A DNA stretch of 32,000 nucleotides from Byssovorax sp. Lineage in GTDB: Bacteria > Myxococcota_A > Polyangia > Polyangiales > Polyangiaceae. Position 1 is the stretch's first letter; each line of letters begins with the position of its first letter. The stretch lies in contig JBDTXR010000004.1 in assembly GCA_040006075.1 (NCBI GenBank), positions 21,457 to 53,456 on the forward strand, given 5' to 3'. Shown here piece after piece: positions 14,272 to 26,568 of the stretch. The notes below the pieces were generated by a model. That model was not told the DNA's origin, did not search any database, and worked only from the letters and a program-made list of their open reading frames with translations. Both the position numbers and the translations under genes were made by a program.

Positions 14272-14344
14272 GCTGCTGAGGCCCAGATAGCGGGGCACCT
14301 GCCTGGTATGCAGGAGAGGGCGCGTGCAATTCGCGCGAGCAGCT
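14272..14344 (+). tRNA. tRNA-Thr (GGT) with unusual T-loop
   Basis: Acceptor GCTGCTG/GAGCAGC (G7.G66). D-arm GCCC-AGATAGCG-GGGC. Anticodon arm CCTGC-CTGGTAT-GCAGG. T-arm GCGCG-TGCAATT-CGCGC, with G at position 55. CCA encoded. Confidence 0.65.
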
Positions 14345-14398
14345 CCACGAGACGAGGAGAAAGGAGAGAAGCACGAGAACAGTCTGGAACGAGGTTTC

Positions 14399-14469
14399 GC
14401 GGGCATCGTCCAAGGGTAGGGCCACGGTCTTCCACACCGTCGATGCGGGTTCGATTCCCGCTGCCCGCT
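14399..14469 (+). tRNA. tRNA-Gly (TCC)
   Basis: Acceptor GCGGGCA/TGCCCGC. D-arm GTCC-AAGGGTA-GGGC. Anticodon arm ACGGT-CTTCCAC-ACCGT. T-arm GCGGG-TTCGATT-CCCGC. U73. Confidence 0.85.
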
Positions 14470-14487
14470 TCGCGAAGTCTGAAATTT

Positions 14488-14558
14488 GCGGTGGTAGCTC
14501 AGTGGTAGAGTCCGAGCGTGCCAAGCTCGGGACGGGAGTTCGATTCTCCTCCACCGCT
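14488..14558 (+). tRNA. tRNA-Gly (GCC)
   Basis: Acceptor GCGGTGG/CCACCGC. D-arm GCTC-AGTGGTA-GAGT. Anticodon arm CGAGC-GTGCCAA-GCTCG. T-arm GGGAG-TTCGATT-CTCCT. U73. Confidence 0.85.
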
Positions 14559-14576
14559 CTCGGTGTTTGGTTTCAC

Positions 14577-14645
14577 GAGCCGGATCTCTGGCGAGGAACG
14601 GGGTCTGCAAAACCGCGGTTCCGGGTTCGATTCCCGGTCGGCTCT
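14577..14645 (+). tRNA. tRNA-Cys (GCA)
   Basis: Acceptor GAGCCGG/TCGGCTC. Compact D hairpin TCTC-TGGC-GAGG. Anticodon arm GGGGT-CTGCAAA-ACCGC (one G.G). T-arm CCGGG-TTCGATT-CCCGG. U73. Confidence 0.7.
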
Positions 14646-14664
14646 CCGATAGAAGAAGGGAAAT

Positions 14665-14736
14665 GCCCTCGACGCCCAGCGGAAGGGCCGCCGTCTTCTA
14701 AACGGCACTTTGCGGGTTCGACTCCCGCCGAGGGCT
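14665..14736 (+). tRNA. tRNA-Arg (TCT)
   Basis: Acceptor GCCCTCG/CGAGGGC. D-arm GCCC-AGCGGAA-GGGC. Anticodon arm GCCGT-CTTCTAA-ACGGC. T-arm GCGGG-TTCGACT-CCCGC. Confidence 0.85.
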
Positions 14737-14763
14737 CTCGCTACCGTGCTCACGATTTGCCAT

Positions 14764-14838
14764 GTCCCCATCTTGCTAGATGGCCCAGGCAGCCAGATTC
14801 TCAATCTGGAAACGCGGGTTCGACTCCCGCTGGGGACG
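14764..14838 (+). tRNA. tRNA-Glu (CTC)
   Basis: Acceptor GTCCCCA/TGGGGAC. Glu-type D-arm TGC-TAGATGGCCCAG-GCA. Anticodon arm CCAGA-TTCTCAA-TCTGG. T-arm GCGGG-TTCGACT-CCCGC. G73. Confidence 0.85.
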
Positions 14839-14980
14839 CCGGGCTGATTTGCCGACCTGTGGTCCTCTTCGGGGGCCCGCGCCTCGGCGGTCGAGCCTGC
14901 CAACGTAGCATCACCCTGTCCGCTCCGCGGAGGACGGCACGGCGGCGCTCGCGAGCTGCGGCACGATCCGCAGCTCTGTT

Positions 14981-15049
14981 CTCTCTGTCCCGGCGGCCGG
15001 GCATCGGGCTACGAACTCGATTGGCGAGGTTCGACTCCTCGCAGAGAGG
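14981..15049 (+). tRNA. tRNA-Arg (ACG)
   Basis: Acceptor CTCTCTG/CAGAGAG. Compact D hairpin CCCGG-CGG-CCGGG. Anticodon arm TCGGG-CTACGAA-CTCGA. T-arm CGAGG-TTCGACT-CCTCG. G73 and CCA encoded. Confidence 0.7.
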
Positions 15050-15087
15050 CCAATCCATCAGCGCCGCGTTCTCACGCGCGGCGCCCT

Positions 15088-15158
15088 GCCCTCGTTCTCG
15101 TGGCACGAGACACAAGCCTCCGAAGCTTGTTGCCCAGGTTCGATTCCTGGCGAGGGCG
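15088..15158 (+). tRNA. tRNA-Arg (CCG)
   Basis: Acceptor GCCCTCG/CGAGGGC. Compact D hairpin CTCG-TGGCA-CGAG. Anticodon arm CAAGC-CTCCGAA-GCTTG. T-arm CCAGG-TTCGATT-CCTGG. Confidence 0.75.
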
Positions 15159-15159
15159 C

Positions 15160-15228
15160 CGCAGGAAGGGACGGTCCCAACCGAGGCTCATAATCTCGAC
15201 TCCGCGGGTTCAATTCCCGCTCCTGCAT
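15160..15228 (+). tRNA. tRNA-Met (CAT), initiator-like C1.A72
   Basis: Acceptor CGCAGGA/TCCTGCA with an unpaired C1.A72. Compact D hairpin GGGA-CGG-TCCC. Anticodon arm CGAGG-CTCATAA-TCTCG, without the three G-C pairs typical of initiators. T-arm GCGGG-TTCAATT-CCCGC. Confidence 0.65.
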
Positions 15229-15229
15229 C

Positions 15230-15298
15230 CGCGGCGCCTCGAGGCGAGCGGCGGCTCTCATAAGGCTGTCCGTGGAGGTTCGATTCCTCCCGTCGCGA
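15230..15298 (+). tRNA. tRNA with CAT anticodon (elongator Met or lysidine-dependent Ile2; not distinguishable by eye)
   Basis: Acceptor CGCGGCG/CGTCGCG. Compact D hairpin CTCG-AGG-CGAG. Anticodon arm CGGCT-CTCATAA-GGCTG (2 G.U). T-arm GGAGG-TTCGATT-CCTCC. A73. Confidence 0.65.
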
Positions 15299-15303
15299 CT
15301 CAT

Positions 15304-15377
15304 CTGGGTGTGGCTCAATCTGGCAGAGCACCGGTTCCGGGCACCGGGGACTGGAGGTTCGAATCCTCCCATCCAGA
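15304..15377 (+). tRNA. tRNA-Pro (CGG) with C33
   Basis: Acceptor CTGGGTG/CATCCAG (C1-G72). D-arm GCTC-AATCTGGCA-GAGC. Anticodon arm CCGGT-TCCGGGC-ACCGG. T-arm GGAGG-TTCGAAT-CCTCC. A73 and CCA encoded. Confidence 0.75.
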
Positions 15378-15400
15378 CCATTTCAGCAGTACAATTCCAT

Positions 15401-15475
15401 CTGGGTGTGGCTCAATCTGGTCAGAGCACCGGTTCGGGGAACCGGGGACTGGAGGTTCAAATCCTCTCACCCAGA
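15401..15475 (+). tRNA. tRNA-Pro (GGG) with C33
   Basis: Acceptor CTGGGTG/CACCCAG. D-arm GCTC-AATCTGGTCA-GAGC. Anticodon arm CCGGT-TCGGGGA-ACCGG. T-arm GGAGG-TTCAAAT-CCTCT. A73 and CCA encoded. Confidence 0.75.
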
Positions 15476-15479
15476 CCAC

Positions 15480-15552
15480 GCGGGACGAGCAAGCTGGTGA
15501 ATGCGCCGGTCCCACAAACCGGTCTCGCAGGGTTCGATCCCCTGGTCCCGCA
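15480..15552 (+). tRNA. tRNA-Val (CAC) with C33
   Basis: Acceptor GCGGGAC/GTCCCGC. Anticodon arm CCGGT-CCCACAA-ACCGG. T-arm CAGGG-TTCGATC-CCCTG. A73. Confidence 0.75.
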
Positions 15553-15574
15553 CGAACGAAGGAGTATTTACGTC

Positions 15575-15646
15575 GGGGCAGGACGGTACGGTGACCTGAG
15601 CTCTCTGATAAGGAGCTCGCTCCGGGTTCGACTCCCGGCTGCCCCA
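15575..15646 (+). tRNA. tRNA-Ile (GAT)
   Basis: Acceptor GGGGCAG/CTGCCCC. D hairpin GGT-ACGGTG-ACC. Anticodon arm GCTCT-CTGATAA-GGAGC, extendable to 7 bp. T-arm CCGGG-TTCGACT-CCCGG. A73 and CCA encoded. Confidence 0.75.
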
Positions 15647-15660
15647 CCATCGCGACAAAC

Positions 15661-15732
15661 GCAGGGCTCGCTCTCTGGGAGAGCACCGGCTCGACAAGCC
15701 GGATCAGGTGAGTTCGATCCTCACGCCCTGCA
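15661..15732 (+). tRNA. tRNA-Val (GAC) with C33
   Basis: Acceptor GCAGGGC/GCCCTGC. D-arm GCTC-TCTGGGA-GAGC. Anticodon arm CCGGC-TCGACAA-GCCGG. T-arm GTGAG-TTCGATC-CTCAC. A73. Confidence 0.8.
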
Positions 15733-15748
15733 CCGTTCGAGGTTTCAC

Positions 15749-15821
15749 ATCCATGTGGCGTAACTGGCAACCGCGGCGGTCTCAGAAACCGTTTTTGGGG
15801 GTTCGACTCCCCCCATGGATA
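15749..15821 (+). tRNA. tRNA with Leu anticodon CAG but short (5-nt) variable loop
   Basis: Acceptor ATCCATG/CATGGAT. D-arm GCG-TAACTGGCAAC-CGC. Anticodon arm GCGGT-CTCAGAA-ACCGT. Variable loop TTTTG. T-arm GGGGG-TTCGACT-CCCCC. A73. Confidence 0.65.
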
Positions 15822-15827
15822 TTTCAC

Positions 15828-15909
15828 GGCACTGTGGCGAAATGGCAAACGTGGCGGACTGAGATTCCGTGCCCGAGAGGGTTTGTGGGTTCGATTCCCA
15901 CCAGTGCTA
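15828..15909 (+). tRNA. tRNA-Leu (GAG), class II
   Basis: Acceptor GGCACTG/CAGTGCT. D-arm GCG-AAATGGCAAA-CGT. Anticodon arm GCGGA-CTGAGAT-TCCGT. 15-nt variable arm GCCC-GAGA-GGGT-TTG. T-arm GTGGG-TTCGATT-CCCAC. A73. Confidence 0.8.
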
Positions 15910-15925
15910 CCGATCGATGAACCAT

Positions 15926-15999
15926 GCTCGGGTGACGTAAATGGCAAACGTGGCCGCCTCAAAAACGGTCGATTGCGGGTTCGAGTCCCGCCCCGAGCA
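15926..15999 (+). tRNA. tRNA with Leu anticodon CAA but short variable loop
   Basis: Acceptor GCTCGGG/CCCGAGC. D-arm ACG-TAAATGGCAAA-CGT. Anticodon arm GCCGC-CTCAAAA-ACGGT (C.A at 31-39); an alternative fold is a 9-nt loop closed by GGCCG/CGGTC. Variable loop CGATT. T-arm GCGGG-TTCGAGT-CCCGC. A73. Confidence 0.6.
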
Positions 16000-16114
16000 C
16001 CGGGTGGATCTTCTGGGCGATGGTCGCTCAGGGGCTGCCCATCTCCCGTTCGGCGCGCGAGCGCCTGGAGAGCTGTGATGAAGATGAGGCGAAGCTAGAG
16101 GAACGAGGTGGACC

Positions 16115-16618
16115 ATGATCGCGCTGACGCTGTTGCTCACTCCGTGGATGAGGCCCCACAAGATCATTTCATGGCAGGTCGCCGTGACGATGAGCTTCCT
16201 GGGAAAGGTCGAGGTCATCGAGGAGTACGACGAGGAGATCGCCTCTCCGTCGCTCTCCATCCGCGCGCCCGCCGTGGTCCGCTTGAAGCGGCCCCTCGGC
16301 GGGATGAAGCGTGGAGTGAAGTTCTCGCGCAACAATGTCTTCGCGCGCGACGATTTTCGCTGCCAGTACTGCGGCGCGCGGAAGTCGGCGCGGGAGCTGA
16401 ACTACGACCACGTCGTGCCCCGCGTTCAGGGCGGCGCGACGGTCTGGGACAACATCGTCGCCTCTTGCTACGACTGCAACGGCAAGAAGCGTGGTCGGAC
16501 CCCGGAGCAAGCCGGGATGAAGCTGCTCCGGACCCCGGTGAAGCCCCGCTCGCTGCCGATGACCACGGTCCTCTCGCGGGAGGGAAACCACCCGGAGTCG
16601 TGGCTCCACTACTGCTGA
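16115..16618 (+). CDS. HNH endonuclease
   Basis: 167-aa ORF with GAGGTGG upstream of the ATG. The HNH/zinc-finger core is FRCQYCGARKSARELNYDHVVPRVQGGATVWDNIVASCYDCNGKK. Confidence 0.8.
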   Translation: MIALTLLLTPWMRPHKIISWQVAVTMSFLGKVEVIEEYDEEIASPSLSIRAPAVVRLKRPLGGMKRGVKFSRNNVFARDDFRCQYCGARKSARELNYDHVVPRVQGGATVWDNIVASCYDCNGKKRGRTPEQAGMKLLRTPVKPRSLPMTTVLSREGNHPESWLHYC

Positions 16619-16623
16619 GCCAA

Positions 16624-16663
16624 CCTCGCTCCCGCTCGCCGTTCTTGCAGAGCGGGAGCGAGG
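16624..16663 (+). terminator. 12-bp GC hairpin after the HNH gene
   Basis: CCTCGCTCCCGC-16 nt-GCGGGAGCGAGG, followed by the pyrimidine-rich TCTCTCCTCTCG. There is no clean U-tract. Confidence 0.4.
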
Positions 16664-16683
16664 TCTCTCCTCTCGAATCTGCT

Positions 16684-16770
16684 GGAAGATGAATCGGCCA
16701 GGGGCCGGACCTGCTTGGAAAGCAGCGTGCACCTCGACAGGGGTGTGGGGATCGAGACCTCCATCTTCCG
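16684..16770 (+). tRNA. tRNA-Ser (GGA) with 8/4 (Sec/allo-tRNA-like) architecture
   Basis: 8-bp acceptor GGAAGATG/CATCTTCC. D-arm with a 6-bp stem and 3-nt loop (TCGGCC-AGG-GGCCGG, T.G closing pair). Anticodon arm CTGC-TTGGAAA-GCAG. Long variable arm (CACC...GGTG). 4-bp T-stem GGGG-ATCGAGA-CCTC. G73. Confidence 0.6.
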
Positions 16771-16786
16771 CTCTCACGTTTCACAT

Positions 16787-16871
16787 GGAAGCTGAACCGG
16801 CATGGTGTCGGGCCCGGTTGCTACCCGGTGCGTGCCCTCCAGGGTATGGTGTTCGATTCACCCGGCTTCCG
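16787..16871 (+). tRNA. tRNA-Ser (GCT) with 8/4 architecture
   Basis: 8-bp acceptor GGAAGCTG/CGGCTTCC (1 G.U). D-arm with a 5-bp stem and 5-nt loop (CCGGC-ATGGT-GTCGG). Anticodon arm CCGG-TTGCTAC-CCGG. Long variable arm (CCCT-CC-AGGG). 4-bp T-stem GGTG-TTCGATT-CACC. G73. Confidence 0.65.
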
Positions 16872-16899
16872 CCGACGGGCCGTGATGATCGCGTTCCAT

Positions 16900-16970
16900 T
16901 CGGGGATCGTCCAAGGGCAGGACGGGGGTTTTTGACACCTCAAATCGTGGTTCGAATCCACGTCTCCGAG
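16900..16970 (+). tRNA. tRNA-Gln (TTG)
   Basis: Acceptor TCGGGGA/TCTCCGA (U1-A72). D-arm GTCC-AAGGGCA-GGAC. Anticodon arm GGGGT-TTTTGAC-ACCTC. T-arm CGTGG-TTCGAAT-CCACG. G73 and CCA encoded. Confidence 0.85.
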
Positions 16971-17001
16971 CCAGCCTTCCAGTCTATCGTTCGCTCGGGT
17001 G

Positions 17002-24577: not shown

Positions 24578-25267
24578 TCAGGGCTTCTTGACGCCGAGGA
24601 AGCTGGCGAGAGCAGGGTAGTCGCGGTCCTCGACGGCGCCCTCGATCACGCAGGCCACCTGGCCGCTGGGGGCGACCAGGGCTTGCAGCGGGAGCTGCGG
24701 AGGATCCTTGACGTTGAGCGCCGCGAGCCAGCCGGAGCGGCCTTCGCCCTCGGGGAGCCAGTACGAGGCGCGCACGCCGTTCTTCGGTTGAGCCTCGATG
24801 AAGCGCTGGAGCTGGCGCTCGTCGTCGTCCATCGAAACAAAAGCAAAGTCGATGAGCACGCCGGCGGCAGCGAGCTTGTCGCGCCAGCTCACGAGGCGCG
24901 GCATCTCTTCCTTGCAGGGGCCGCACCAGGCTGCCCAGAAGTTGACCCAGACCCATTTGCCGACGCCGAAGGGCACGGGGACGGGCGGAGCGTCGTTGCC
25001 TGGAGCGGCGACGGCCCGGGGGTTTCCCTTCGGCGCGGGGCGCGGCGACTGCCCCGCACAGAGCTGGCGAGGTGCGGTGTTGACCGGGGCGACCGGGTGC
25101 GCGGTGGGCGGGGGAGCGCCCGAGTCGCGCGCGGCGACGGCGTCCCCGCCGCGGCCGGTGGGAGGCGGGGGAGGAGGCAAGCTGCTCTTGCCGCCGCCGC
25201 CGTCGCAGCCGGAGAGCAGGGCCGCGACGAGGGCGGTGACCGTCAGGGAAGGGCGCAGGGAGATCAT
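24578..25267 (-). CDS. TlpA/ResA-like thiol:disulfide oxidoreductase lipoprotein
   Basis: Start ATG is at 25267 (MISLRPSLTVTALVAALLSGC lipobox). It has a Pro-rich linker and a thioredoxin motif FWAAWCGPCKEEMP. The listed 503-aa ORF extension overlaps the upstream gene in another frame and is rejected. Confidence 0.75.
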   Translation of the reverse strand: MISLRPSLTVTALVAALLSGCDGGGGKSSLPPPPPPTGRGGDAVAARDSGAPPPTAHPVAPVNTAPRQLCAGQSPRPAPKGNPRAVAAPGNDAPPVPVPFGVGKWVWVNFWAAWCGPCKEEMPRLVSWRDKLAAAGVLIDFAFVSMDDDERQLQRFIEAQPKNGVRASYWLPEGEGRSGWLAALNVKDPPQLPLQALVAPSGQVACVIEGAVEDRDYPALASFLGVKKP

Positions 25268-26568
25268 CAACGCTTCTCCGCGGTGGCGGCGGGGGCGAGC
25301 GGGTAGGAGAGCGTATCGAACAGCCACTCTTTGTTCTTCGCGACCTCGCCCGTGAGCTTCTCGACCATGCCAGAGCGGCGCTCGAAGAGGCGGTATCCCT
25401 CGCGTGGGCGGAGGTAGCCGCGGGCCTTGGGGTGCTTCTCGAACAGGGCCTCTTCGCCCATCTTCTCGGCCCAGCTCGCGTAGCGGGCGCGGTTCTCGAG
25501 GAGCGCCTTGACCAGGAAGGGCATGATCACCGAGAAGTCGCCCTGCATGCTCTCGGTGGTGCTCTGGTAGGTGGCGCGGTCGACCTTGCCCCAGGTGACG
25601 GCCTCGGAAGGCGGGCACGAGGACAGCGATCCATCGGTGATCGGCGCCGAGACGATCTGCACGTCGAACGAGTAGCCCTGGATGTTCGGGAGGCCAAGGA
25701 CCTGGCCGAGGGCGGGCTCGGGCTGGAGGTTGTAGTTCTTGGGGACGCCGCCGCCGAGGACCAGCGTGGCGAGGGCCTGGGTGGGCTGATCGAAGAGGCC
25801 CCAGAAGTGGTAGGCGCAGGCCTCGAACACCTCGGCGTGGAGGTCGAGATCGAAGTCGTAGCTCTTGATGAGCCCGGCCTTCTTCATGGCCCAGAGCTTC
25901 ATGGAGTTGAGGAAGACGCTGCCGTCGCCCGGGGCGCCGACGAAGATGGGAATGGCCATCTGGTGGCAGCGGGCGAGGAGGCCGGTCGCGACGCCGTTCT
26001 GGGCCTCTTGCGCGGCGTATTTCGCGCCCAGGAGATACCGCATCTCGGTGCCCGTCATCCGCTTCTGGAACTCCGGGAGCTGCAAGCACGCGCTGATGAA
26101 GCGGTCCTGGTGCAACAGCACGTCTTCGTCGAAGGCCATGTCGGTGACGCGGATGGTCTTCTCGTCGCGGAGCGCGCCGTCGTCGCCGAAGATGGGGACC
26201 TCGTGGATCGGGCCCTCTTTGTAGGCGTCGAGGCTCCGGTGGCCGTCGTGGTAACAGATGGCGTCCGTCATGCTGAGGTAAGCGACCCAGCCCGTCTCGA
26301 TCAGCGGATTCAACCAGACCTGGTGCTGTCCCGAGACGGTGATCGGCCCCGAGACGGCGACCGTGAGCGGGCAGCCCGAGCCGATGGCCTCGTCGAGGAT
26401 CCCGTAAATCCGGCGGAGAAACGCGCCGCCGAAGGCCGGGAGACAGTGGGTGAGGAGATCGCCCGTCGTGGTGGTCTCGTCGATGCGGCGAACGACGACC
26501 GGGCGGCGGGGACCGCCTTGAGCCGGGGCCTGGCCACCGGGTTCCTGACAGGGATGCTTGGCGCTCAT
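25267..26568 (-). CDS. deoxyhypusine synthase-like (homospermidine synthase-like) protein
   Basis: 433-aa ORF. Blocks such as VAVSGPITVSGQHQVWLNPLIETGWVAYLSMTDAICYHD and GGGVPKNYNLQPEP resemble the deoxyhypusine synthase family. Its stop overlaps the TlpA-like start by 1 nt (TGATG). Confidence 0.65.
   Translation of the reverse strand: MSAKHPCQEPGGQAPAQGGPRRPVVVRRIDETTTTGDLLTHCLPAFGGAFLRRIYGILDEAIGSGCPLTVAVSGPITVSGQHQVWLNPLIETGWVAYLSMTDAICYHDGHRSLDAYKEGPIHEVPIFGDDGALRDEKTIRVTDMAFDEDVLLHQDRFISACLQLPEFQKRMTGTEMRYLLGAKYAAQEAQNGVATGLLARCHQMAIPIFVGAPGDGSVFLNSMKLWAMKKAGLIKSYDFDLDLHAEVFEACAYHFWGLFDQPTQALATLVLGGGVPKNYNLQPEPALGQVLGLPNIQGYSFDVQIVSAPITDGSLSSCPPSEAVTWGKVDRATYQSTTESMQGDFSVIMPFLVKALLENRARYASWAEKMGEEALFEKHPKARGYLRPREGYRLFERRSGMVEKLTGEVAKNKEWLFDTLSYPLAPAATAEKR

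Follow-up and report, generated by a model that had tools for sequence, protein, structure and literature searches.

Uridine at position 33 of the anticodon loop (U33) is almost invariant among tRNAs, with exceptions in the eukaryotic initiators, which carry C33, and in the Candida tRNA-Ser(CAG), which carries G33 (PMC5041475). Yeast tRNA-Leu(GAG) naturally carries C33, and its function is not substantially impaired, with minor effects only (PMC13492127). Long arrays of tRNA genes, called tRNA array units or L-arrays and defined as 20 or more tRNA genes with no fewer than two per kb, have also been described (PMC4758250, PMC8421152). Natural C33 elongator tRNAs and long tRNA arrays are both already known kinds. 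Here we analyzed 32,000 nucleotides of a Byssovorax sp. genome (contig JBDTXR010000004.1, positions 21,457 to 53,456; hereafter the window), which carry an array of 34 tRNA genes in 7.08 kb (4.8 genes per kb) that qualifies as such an array and in which four tRNAs, tRNA-Pro(CGG), tRNA-Pro(GGG), tRNA-Val(CAC) and tRNA-Val(GAC), have C at position 33 (Table 1). Comparison with related and unrelated loci indicates that C33 is an inherited, isoacceptor-specific state rather than a local accident. That accessory arrays are enriched in C33 in particular isoacceptors is apparently unreported: our literature search found no description of C33 for Val or Pro tRNAs of bacteria or for arrays of tRNA genes, and C33 enrichment is not mentioned in the text of PMC8421152 or PMC4758250.

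The 34 genes called by ARAGORN all lie on the forward strand, and extraction of the anticodon loops from the predicted structures, concordant with the raw sequence, gave C33 in these four genes and T33 in the remaining 30, as well as in two degenerate tRNA-like genes that default ARAGORN misses. The initial annotation had drawn the same folds and loops and had named the same four genes as the only C33 members of the array, and both descriptions held. The covariance-model check it had proposed was run with Infernal, and the tRNA model RF00005 placed tRNA-Pro(GGG) (62.2 bits), tRNA-Pro(CGG) (57.4 bits) and tRNA-Val(GAC) (46.0 bits) in a register identical to that of ARAGORN. The match of tRNA-Val(CAC) was weak: the tRNA-Sec model, which belongs to the same clan as RF00005, scored it at 29.3 bits (the gathering threshold of RF00005 is 29 bits), but despite this score its cloverleaf has the support of orthologues. 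When tRNAs of related arrays were aligned (25 Pro in A1, 23 Val in A2), compensatory changes appeared at all five anticodon-stem pairs, with 99% of cells paired, and in a control with the 3' partner shifted by one to three columns pairing dropped to 32-47%. Another loop register that would bring back U33 was ruled out by Infernal and the shifted-register controls. Because the loops cannot be redrawn to U33, the observation stands, and C33 in these genes is confirmed as real and reproducible.

In tests that treat related tRNAs as independent, the proportion of C33 in the array (4/34) exceeded that in stand-alone bacterial tRNAs (3/210, or 1.4%, a count that, like the count for arrays outside Polyangia given below, excludes the tRNA targeted by each scan; Fisher p = 0.008), and the four C33 genes fell within five consecutive genes (p = 0.003). 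This clustering is largely due to related isoacceptors lying next to each other, and since tRNA-Pro(CGG) and tRNA-Pro(GGG) are near-identical paralogues, their C33 represents one event, not two.

Apart from position 33, the four genes carry the features expected of working tRNAs. Reading of the sequence found the identity elements C1-G72, A73, G35, G36 and G37 in both Pro genes, tRNA-Pro(CGG) included, together with an encoded CCA, and A35, C36, A73 and the purine A37 in both Val genes. The importance of these Pro and Val identity elements is established from E. coli. With cloverleaves kept by covariation, a purine at 37, identity elements in place and CCA encoded in the Pro genes, the tRNAs look functional, and the four C33 genes are most likely intact, chargeable elongator tRNAs that would act as normal decoders.

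Table 1. Positions of the C33 tRNA genes and of the other features discussed, numbered from the first nucleotide of the window.
Feature	Coordinates	Strand	Remarks
tRNA-Pro(CGG)	15304-15380	+	stem CCGGT/ACCGG, loop TCCGGGC, C33 at 15337, G37
tRNA-Pro(GGG)	15401-15478	+	loop TCGGGGA, C33 at 15435
tRNA-Val(CAC)	15480-15553	+	loop CCCACAA, C33 at 15512
tRNA-Ile(GAT)	15575-15649	+	between both Val genes; loop CTGATAA, T33; internal control
tRNA-Val(GAC)	15661-15734	+	stem CCGGC/GCCGG, loop TCGACAA, C33 at 15692
Accessory tRNA array	9890-16973	+	34 ARAGORN genes plus two degenerate tRNA-like genes
tRNA-His	11266-11339	+	loop CTGTGCA, C37
rsr (Ro60 orthologue)	11640-13322	+	inside array, same strand; Pfam TROVE 3.8e-44, vWA_Ro60 7.5e-65
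tRNA-like RNA	13445-13587	+	just 3' of rsr; 7-bp acceptor stem, canonical D and T arms, 3' UCCA
tRNA-Ala(GGC)	14196-14269	+	A32-U38 pair
Thr-GGT-like degenerate tRNA	14272-14347	+	T loop TGCAATT; RF00005 39.5 bits; missed by default ARAGORN
Two abutting tRNA-Met genes	15160-15299	+	very short D arms
Open reading frame	16108-16692	+	194 aa; between tRNA-Leu(CAA) and tRNA-Gln(TTG)
Ser-GCT-like degenerate tRNA	16787-16873	+	8-bp acceptor stem, 4-bp T stem; tRNA-Sec model 35.7 bits; missed by default ARAGORN
50S ribosomal protein L3 gene	17689-18357	-	full length; TIGR03625 228 bits, cut-off 143
Deoxyhypusine-synthase-like open reading frame	25267-26568	-	Pfam DS 1.2e-30

Analysis of nine non-redundant arrays from Polyangia found C33 in 35 of 257 tRNAs, with no A33 or G33. 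The distribution was uneven: C33 occurred in 7/8 Val-GAC, 4/5 Val-CAC, 5/8 Pro-GGG, 5/10 Glu-CTC and 3/10 Pro-CGG genes and in a few cases of Ala-GGC, Ile-GAT, Thr, Asn, Phe, Leu-GAG and Gly-CCC, whereas none of 17 isoacceptors represented by five or more genes had it; those without it include Lys, Gln, Tyr, His, Asp, Arg, Met, Cys, Trp, Gly-GCC/TCC, Leu-CAG/CAA and Ala-CGC. In tests that treat related tRNAs as independent and so ignore shared ancestry, C33 was associated with G34 or C34 (34/199 versus 1/58 with U34 or A34, p = 0.002) and with four-codon boxes (26/123 versus 9/134 in others, p = 0.0009). Position 37 was a purine in 256 of the 257 tRNAs, and the T-loop invariants were near 100%, a figure biased by the dependence of ARAGORN on the T loop, which selects for them.

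Orthologues retained C33 while their stems changed by compensatory substitutions. One case is tRNA-Val(GAC), in which C33 is the most conserved loop position besides the anticodon and is retained in Kofleriaceae beside a wholly different stem (CTTCC/GGAAG). The TCGGGGA loop of tRNA-Pro(GGG) is kept in Byssovorax, Chondromyces, Sorangium and a metagenome-assembled genome (MAG; locus L023), near-identical TCGGGG(T/G/A) loops are found in some stand-alone genes and in arrays from further phyla, and the tRNA-Pro(CGG) orthologue in a Byssovorax locus (L021) likewise has C33. Other members flip between states. Orthologues of tRNA-Val(CAC) have C33 in three loci (L021, L015 and L018) and T33 in two others (L013 and L189), T33 being the state in Chondromyces; those of the T33 tRNA-Ile(GAT) have C33 in L015 and L018; Glu-CTC has T33 in the window and C33 in five other lineages; and Sorangium Pro-TGG has C33 in most strains and T33 in So0157-2.

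To place these genes among bacterial tRNAs at large, we used pattern scans of genomes and metagenomes, which are samples in database order rather than censuses. A scan restricted to C33 returned at least 101 ARAGORN-confirmed tRNA-Val(GAC) genes whose loop reads TCGACA(A/C/T), and almost every one was a single gene within its 8-kb stretch. They came from Planctomycetota, Actinomycetota, Bacteroidota (including isolates of Flavobacterium, Sphingobacterium and Pedobacter), Alphaproteobacteria, Cyanobacteria (Prochlorococcus and Phormidesmis), Chlamydiota, Spirochaetota, Campylobacterota, Bdellovibrionota, Chloroflexota, Bacillota and candidate phyla. When either C or T was allowed at 33, the matches listed comprised 106 new loci, all T33, and 14 C33 loci already found, and among these matches C33 was present in about 13 of 80 Val-GAC genes (16%) versus none of 47 Val-CAC genes. 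The UCGACA loop is widespread in stand-alone genes, and C33 in tRNA-Val(GAC) is an ordinary variant.

The pattern for Pro differed. Among the 120 matches listed by a C33-only scan for Pro-GGG and Pro-CGG, about 30 were real genes, the rest being chance matches in Ser tRNAs; about half of these Pro genes stood alone, as in Kangiella, Aeromonadales and Dehalococcoidia, and about half lay in long arrays, including those of Thermoguttaceae, Blastocatellia, Burkholderiales, Polyangium and Byssovorax and loci L234, L247, L255 and L260. A metagenome scan allowing C or T at 33 found C33 in 0/66 Pro-CGG and 0/49 Pro-GGG genes among the matches listed. The near-invariance of U33 assumed by the initial annotation was thus upheld for Pro-GGG/CGG and Val-CAC and failed for Val-GAC, for which the same feature, which in the housekeeping Pro and Val tRNAs of the genome would by that annotation mark a lineage trait, does occur in housekeeping genes of other phyla. 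C33 in Pro-GGG, Pro-CGG and Val-CAC is rare in ordinary genes and typical of GC-rich long arrays.

Within array tRNAs outside Polyangia, C33 was found in 31 of 238 (13%; Fisher p ~1e-6 versus stand-alone genes), along with two A33 cases, although these arrays were reached through a C33 Pro or Val gene and may be biased toward C33-rich arrays. The isoacceptors with C33 that they share with Polyangia arrays are Glu-CTC (CC), Leu-GAG (TC), Thr-GGT (TC), Thr-CGT (CC) and Val-CAC. On viral contigs, C33 was present in 15/69 Val-GAC, 4/48 Val-CAC and 43/832 (5.2%) other tRNAs of the same loci. C33 was absent from two Ro-linked actinophage arrays (0/63) and from the experimentally studied Anabaena array on pCC7120delta (0/24), which rules out C33 as a general trait of Ro-linked or long arrays, and from five arrays with AT-rich spacers. 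Several of the long arrays, with 33 to 41 tRNA genes, come from Thermoguttaceae, Blastocatellia and other bacteria (L151, L164, L247, L255 and L260) or from viral contigs of IMG/VR (L380, L425, L450 and L477); C33 occurs in their Glu-CTC, Leu-GAG, Thr-GGT/CGT, Pro-GGG and Val-CAC genes, some of their tRNAs have anticodon loops of 6 or 8 nt, and L151, L247, L255 and L260 share a gene order.

The array in the window surrounds rsr, which encodes an orthologue of Ro60 (Rsr), with a start codon inferred as the first Met after tRNA-His. The protein scored 527 bits against the NCBIfam Rsr model, under its 900-bit cut-off. In a one-genome-per-species collection its relatives were all from Polyangia myxobacteria, with identities of 91% in a Byssovorax MAG, 75% in Sorangium, 73% in Chondromyces, 53-72% in other Polyangiaceae MAGs and 54% in Haliangium/Kofleriaceae; identity to actinophage Ro-like proteins was 39-49%. 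Nearly all of these Polyangia loci have a tRNA array around rsr with a recognizably similar gene order, giving syntenic rsr-adjoining arrays in Polyangiaceae, Haliangium and Kofleriaceae. The placement of rsr within a same-strand array, for which loci L001-L024, L027 and L028 were compared, holds throughout Polyangia and is found again in phages of Gordonia and Streptomyces. The genes flanking the array, which are common only to Byssovorax, encode glycerol-3-phosphate-oxidase-like, creatininase and acyl-CoA dehydrogenase proteins upstream and cupredoxin, rhomboid and patatin proteins downstream. A megablast search of positions 13300-17000 against phage and plasmid collections gave no match, and a phage or plasmid origin was ruled out by this result, by the metabolic flanks and by conservation of the locus in myxobacterial chromosomes. 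Since the rsr-array layout is kept across Polyangia, the locus is not a phage array but an rsr-linked set of tRNA genes on the chromosome, of old standing within the class.

Just 3' of rsr lies a tRNA-like RNA, miscalled by ARAGORN as an intron-containing tRNA-Ser, in which a structured insert of about 84 nt, with an enlarged central arm, a long conserved helix and an invariant GACGGTTATC, replaces the anticodon and variable arms. It is present 3' of rsr in all Polyangiaceae loci, with three copies in L016, and shows compensatory changes at six of seven acceptor pairs. We consider it a probable Y RNA. The best matches to the Rfam YrlA model near it scored 28.7-30.9 bits against a threshold of 69, and within the window YrlA gave sub-threshold matches only, overlapping tandem tRNAs. 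Upstream of the array, matches to sigma-54 (RtcR-type) and sigma-70 promoters were no better than chance.

The explanation we favor, and hold with about even confidence, is that C33 is a tolerated and possibly affinity-tuning variant of G34 and C34 tRNAs with strong codon-anticodon helices, inherited in tRNA lineages and accumulating in redundant, GC-rich accessory arrays. The tRNA-Val(GAC) carries the UCGACA loop shared with many ordinary bacterial Val-GAC genes, tRNA-Pro(GGG) a loop typical of GC-rich long arrays and tRNA-Val(CAC) an array-typical C33 state, and tRNA-Pro(CGG) would be a recent duplicate of tRNA-Pro(GGG) with a changed anticodon. Charged by ProRS and ValRS, the four tRNAs would be expected to read CCG, CCC/CCU, GUG and GUC/GUU normally. 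Replacement of U33 would remove the U-turn hydrogen bond from N3-H to phosphate-36, a loss that may be tolerated because these tRNAs have G34 or C34, belong mostly to four-codon boxes and form codon-anticodon helices rich in G+C, and that may tune ribosome affinity; C33 could then accumulate and persist in redundant, GC-rich accessory arrays, such as the one described here, which we infer to be supernumerary to a separate housekeeping tRNA set.

Several observations weigh against this explanation. The Pro-GGG/CGG and Val-CAC forms of C33 are rare in ordinary genes (0/115 and 0/47 among the matches listed), and C33 is about tenfold enriched in long arrays, and enriched also in viral clusters, relative to stand-alone genes, a pattern that would also fit selection for an accessory or anti-defense role. 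Arrays from separate phyla have C33 in the same isoacceptors, namely Glu-CTC (CC), Leu-GAG (TC), Thr-GGT (TC) and Pro-GGG (TC), which suggests that it is maintained and not the product of drift. In addition, spacer GC and C33 share were not significantly correlated (Spearman rho 0.26, p = 0.14), so that a simple dependence of C33 on GC content was rejected in favor of a threshold effect only.

The initial annotation had raised the possibility that the C33 tRNAs are nuclease-evading or otherwise specialized decoders. In the evasion explanation, which we regard as unlikely, the array is a back-up set in which C33 was selected in certain isoacceptors for blocking a nuclease or modifying toxin of the anticodon loop that requires U33 or cuts beside it, so that translation would continue while housekeeping tRNAs are under attack and Rsr with its Y RNA would clear the damaged RNA. 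It would account for the enrichment of C33 in Polyangia arrays, other arrays and viral clusters over stand-alone genes, for its isoacceptor specificity and conservation across phyla, and for the tie of the array to rsr, given that the Salmonella rsr operon is induced by damaged tRNAs (PMC7790460). Loop changes are predicted to let phage tRNAs escape nucleases (PMC10264068), tRNA array units are described as putative anti-defense systems (PMC12803027), and CdiA-CT EC536 cuts between positions 32 and 33 (PMC11724271), making an effect of C33 on some enzyme conceivable; the array also has no canonical Ser tRNAs, which are largely missing from the C1 mycobacteriophage sets too. However, the UCGACA loop is also found in ordinary stand-alone Val-GAC genes of many phyla, C33 is missing from the Ro-linked actinophage arrays checked and from the Anabaena array, and T33/C33 flips among close relatives look nearly neutral. 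Cleavage by gamma-toxin is unchanged by U33C (PMC2275089), our literature search yielded no nuclease aimed at Val or Pro anticodon loops, and no nuclease or toxin gene was recognized within the window. C33 alone is no signature of anticodon-nuclease evasion; what the proposal retains is circumstantial, namely the enrichment in arrays and viruses, the link to rsr and the current view of accessory tRNAs as counter-defense (PMC10264068, PMC12803027), with the actinophage and gamma-toxin results denying it direct support, and the interpretation offered by the initial annotation was partly supported overall. A broader version, which we consider slightly more doubtful still, would have C33 mark a class of accessory tRNAs that spans phyla, is borne by phage clusters and GC-rich long arrays, and was selected isoacceptor by isoacceptor to escape U33-dependent nucleases or toxins and, in Polyangia, co-expressed with Rsr and the tRNA-like Y RNA as a stress-induced replace-and-clear system.

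The remaining alternatives are less likely. Decay, which we consider improbable, would have U33-to-C33 changes accumulating as mildly deleterious, pseudogene-bound substitutions in redundant copies under relaxed selection in a genome of 68% G+C (the value for the window), with little or no role in translation. The degenerate members fit this, including tRNA-Val(CAC) with its 29 bits, the two Met genes with short D loops, the Thr-like gene with its aberrant T loop and the C37 of tRNA-His, as do the exclusive transitions to C at position 33, the reduction of arrays to 7-13 genes in Sorangium and the lack of C33 in AT-rich arrays. Yet stem pairing is maintained in 99% of cells across genera through many compensatory changes, C33 is the best-conserved position of the Val-GAC loop outside the anticodon, identity elements and G37/A37 are intact, the T-loop invariants are kept (with the ARAGORN bias noted above), and natural C33 tRNAs work in yeast (PMC13492127). 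That the array tRNAs serve mainly as ligands or substrates of Rsr and Y RNA, or as aminoacyl donors for secondary metabolism, with the U-turn dispensable, is very improbable. It draws on the rsr gene and tRNA-like RNA embedded in the array and conserved alongside it, and myxobacteria are rich in natural-product pathways; but the array anticodons span 19 amino acids and favor major G/C-ending codons, fine decoding features such as A32-U38 in Ala-GGC and the purine at 37 are kept, and the window showed no gene for tRNA-dependent biosynthesis. Least probable of all is that a C-to-U tRNA editing enzyme turns C33 into U33 after transcription, leaving the mature tRNAs canonical. Bacteria do edit C to U in an anticodon loop, at position 32 of the Vibrio cholerae tRNA-Tyr. 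Against its extension to the present tRNAs, no deaminase gene was found within the window, C33 genes in dozens of unrelated phyla would need a widespread, unrecognized enzyme, and a gene-level swap of C33 to U33 in yeast had only minor reporter effects (PMC13492127). Tolerance of C33 in inherited tRNA lineages remains the reading that we prefer.

The array has no canonical Ser tRNA and lacks several U34 tRNAs. Its sole Ser-type gene is the Ser-GCT-like degenerate member, whose shape resembles the 8/4 'novel cloverleaf' tRNAs (PMC5389517). Elsewhere in the array, the Thr-GGT-like gene, the tRNA-His with C37 and the abutting tRNA-Met genes also depart from the usual tRNA form. The A32-U38 pair of tRNA-Ala(GGC) is found in E. 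coli as well. One of the short Sorangium arrays is without any Pro or Val gene. The 194-aa open reading frame keeps its array position in Byssovorax, Chondromyces, Sorangium and two Polyangiaceae MAGs, with 45-79% identity, and has no match in Pfam, NCBIfam or PDB.

Outside the array, the gene for ribosomal protein L3 stands alone about 700 bp past the last array tRNA, outside any S10 operon; it is common only to Byssovorax loci (74-97% identity) and may be a second L3 paralogue. The deoxyhypusine-synthase-like reading frame lies beside thioredoxin-like and VKOR-domain open reading frames. In a Chloroflexota MAG (JAFAOS010000403.1; L067), an rsr fragment 53% identical to that of the window adjoins an array of 15 tRNAs, of which Glu-CTC, Val-GAC, Val-CAC and Ala-TGC have C33, suggesting either horizontal transfer of the rsr-array module or a binning error. 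Taken with the arrays of other phyla that have similar C33 isoacceptors, this locus would point to transfer.

These results indicate that the textbook rule for U33 needs an isoacceptor-specific qualifier, as C33 is present in roughly one of every six bacterial tRNA-Val(GAC) genes sampled, and that GC-rich long arrays have about 13% C33 compared with about 1% in ordinary stand-alone tRNAs. In tRNA-Val(GAC), C33 is accordingly no reason to infer a pseudogene or a special function. The enrichment in Pro, Val-CAC, Glu-CTC, Thr and Leu-GAG may inform what accessory tRNA sets are selected for, a debate that ranges over codon supply, survival of translational stress and escape from tRNA-targeting defenses. 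With rsr and a probable Y RNA inside a 34-gene array throughout a class, the locus also offers a good natural system for the study of the relation of Ro60 to tRNA metabolism.

Among known systems, the eukaryotic initiator tRNA-Met and the Candida tRNA-Ser(CAG) resemble the window tRNAs as natural departures from U33 (PMC5041475), but one is an initiator and the other is linked to codon reassignment, and neither is a bacterial elongator. The L-arrays or tRNA array units (PMC8421152, PMC4758250) share the dense set of at least 20 same-strand tRNA genes with redundant isodecoders, and related array gene orders turn up in distant phyla; the Anabaena array, however, has neither rsr nor C33, and L-arrays are sporadic whereas the Polyangia array is conserved through the whole class. 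The tRNA clusters of actinobacteriophages (Bixzunavirus such as Cali, Gordonia phage Sixama and Streptomyces phage Riptide) likewise have a Ro60 orthologue in or beside about 30 tRNA genes, but they belong to phage genomes, showed no C33 among the 63 tRNAs checked and have another gene order. In Riptide, a tmRNA, an RNA ligase and a small uL24 gene lie in the tRNA region as well. The phage tRNAs predicted to escape nucleases (PMC10264068) are, like the window set, accessory tRNAs with unusual anticodon loops and an under-representation of Ser tRNAs; their substitutions, in contrast, coincide with known cleavage sites of VapC, PrrC or colicins and are judged by comparison with host tRNAs, with position 33 unmentioned, whereas one of the window variants is common in housekeeping genes.

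Other counterparts of the C33 tRNAs are found outside arrays. Yeast tRNA-Leu(GAG) has C33 beside G34 in a four-codon box, and as a non-essential, redundant gene bears little cost for it (PMC13492127), but it is a single eukaryotic gene outside any array and of another isoacceptor. A Leu-GAG with C33 occurs also in the Haliangium array and in other arrays. Also comparable are the stand-alone bacterial tRNA-Val(GAC) genes, for which our search of the literature found no descriptive paper. They match the window gene in U32, C33, GAC and A37, with TCGACAA as their commonest loop, and in a 5-bp anticodon stem and canonical cloverleaf. They are single, dispersed, canonical genes (GGGCGATTAGCTCAG...), whereas the tRNA-Val(GAC) of the window is a divergent copy inside an rsr-linked array.

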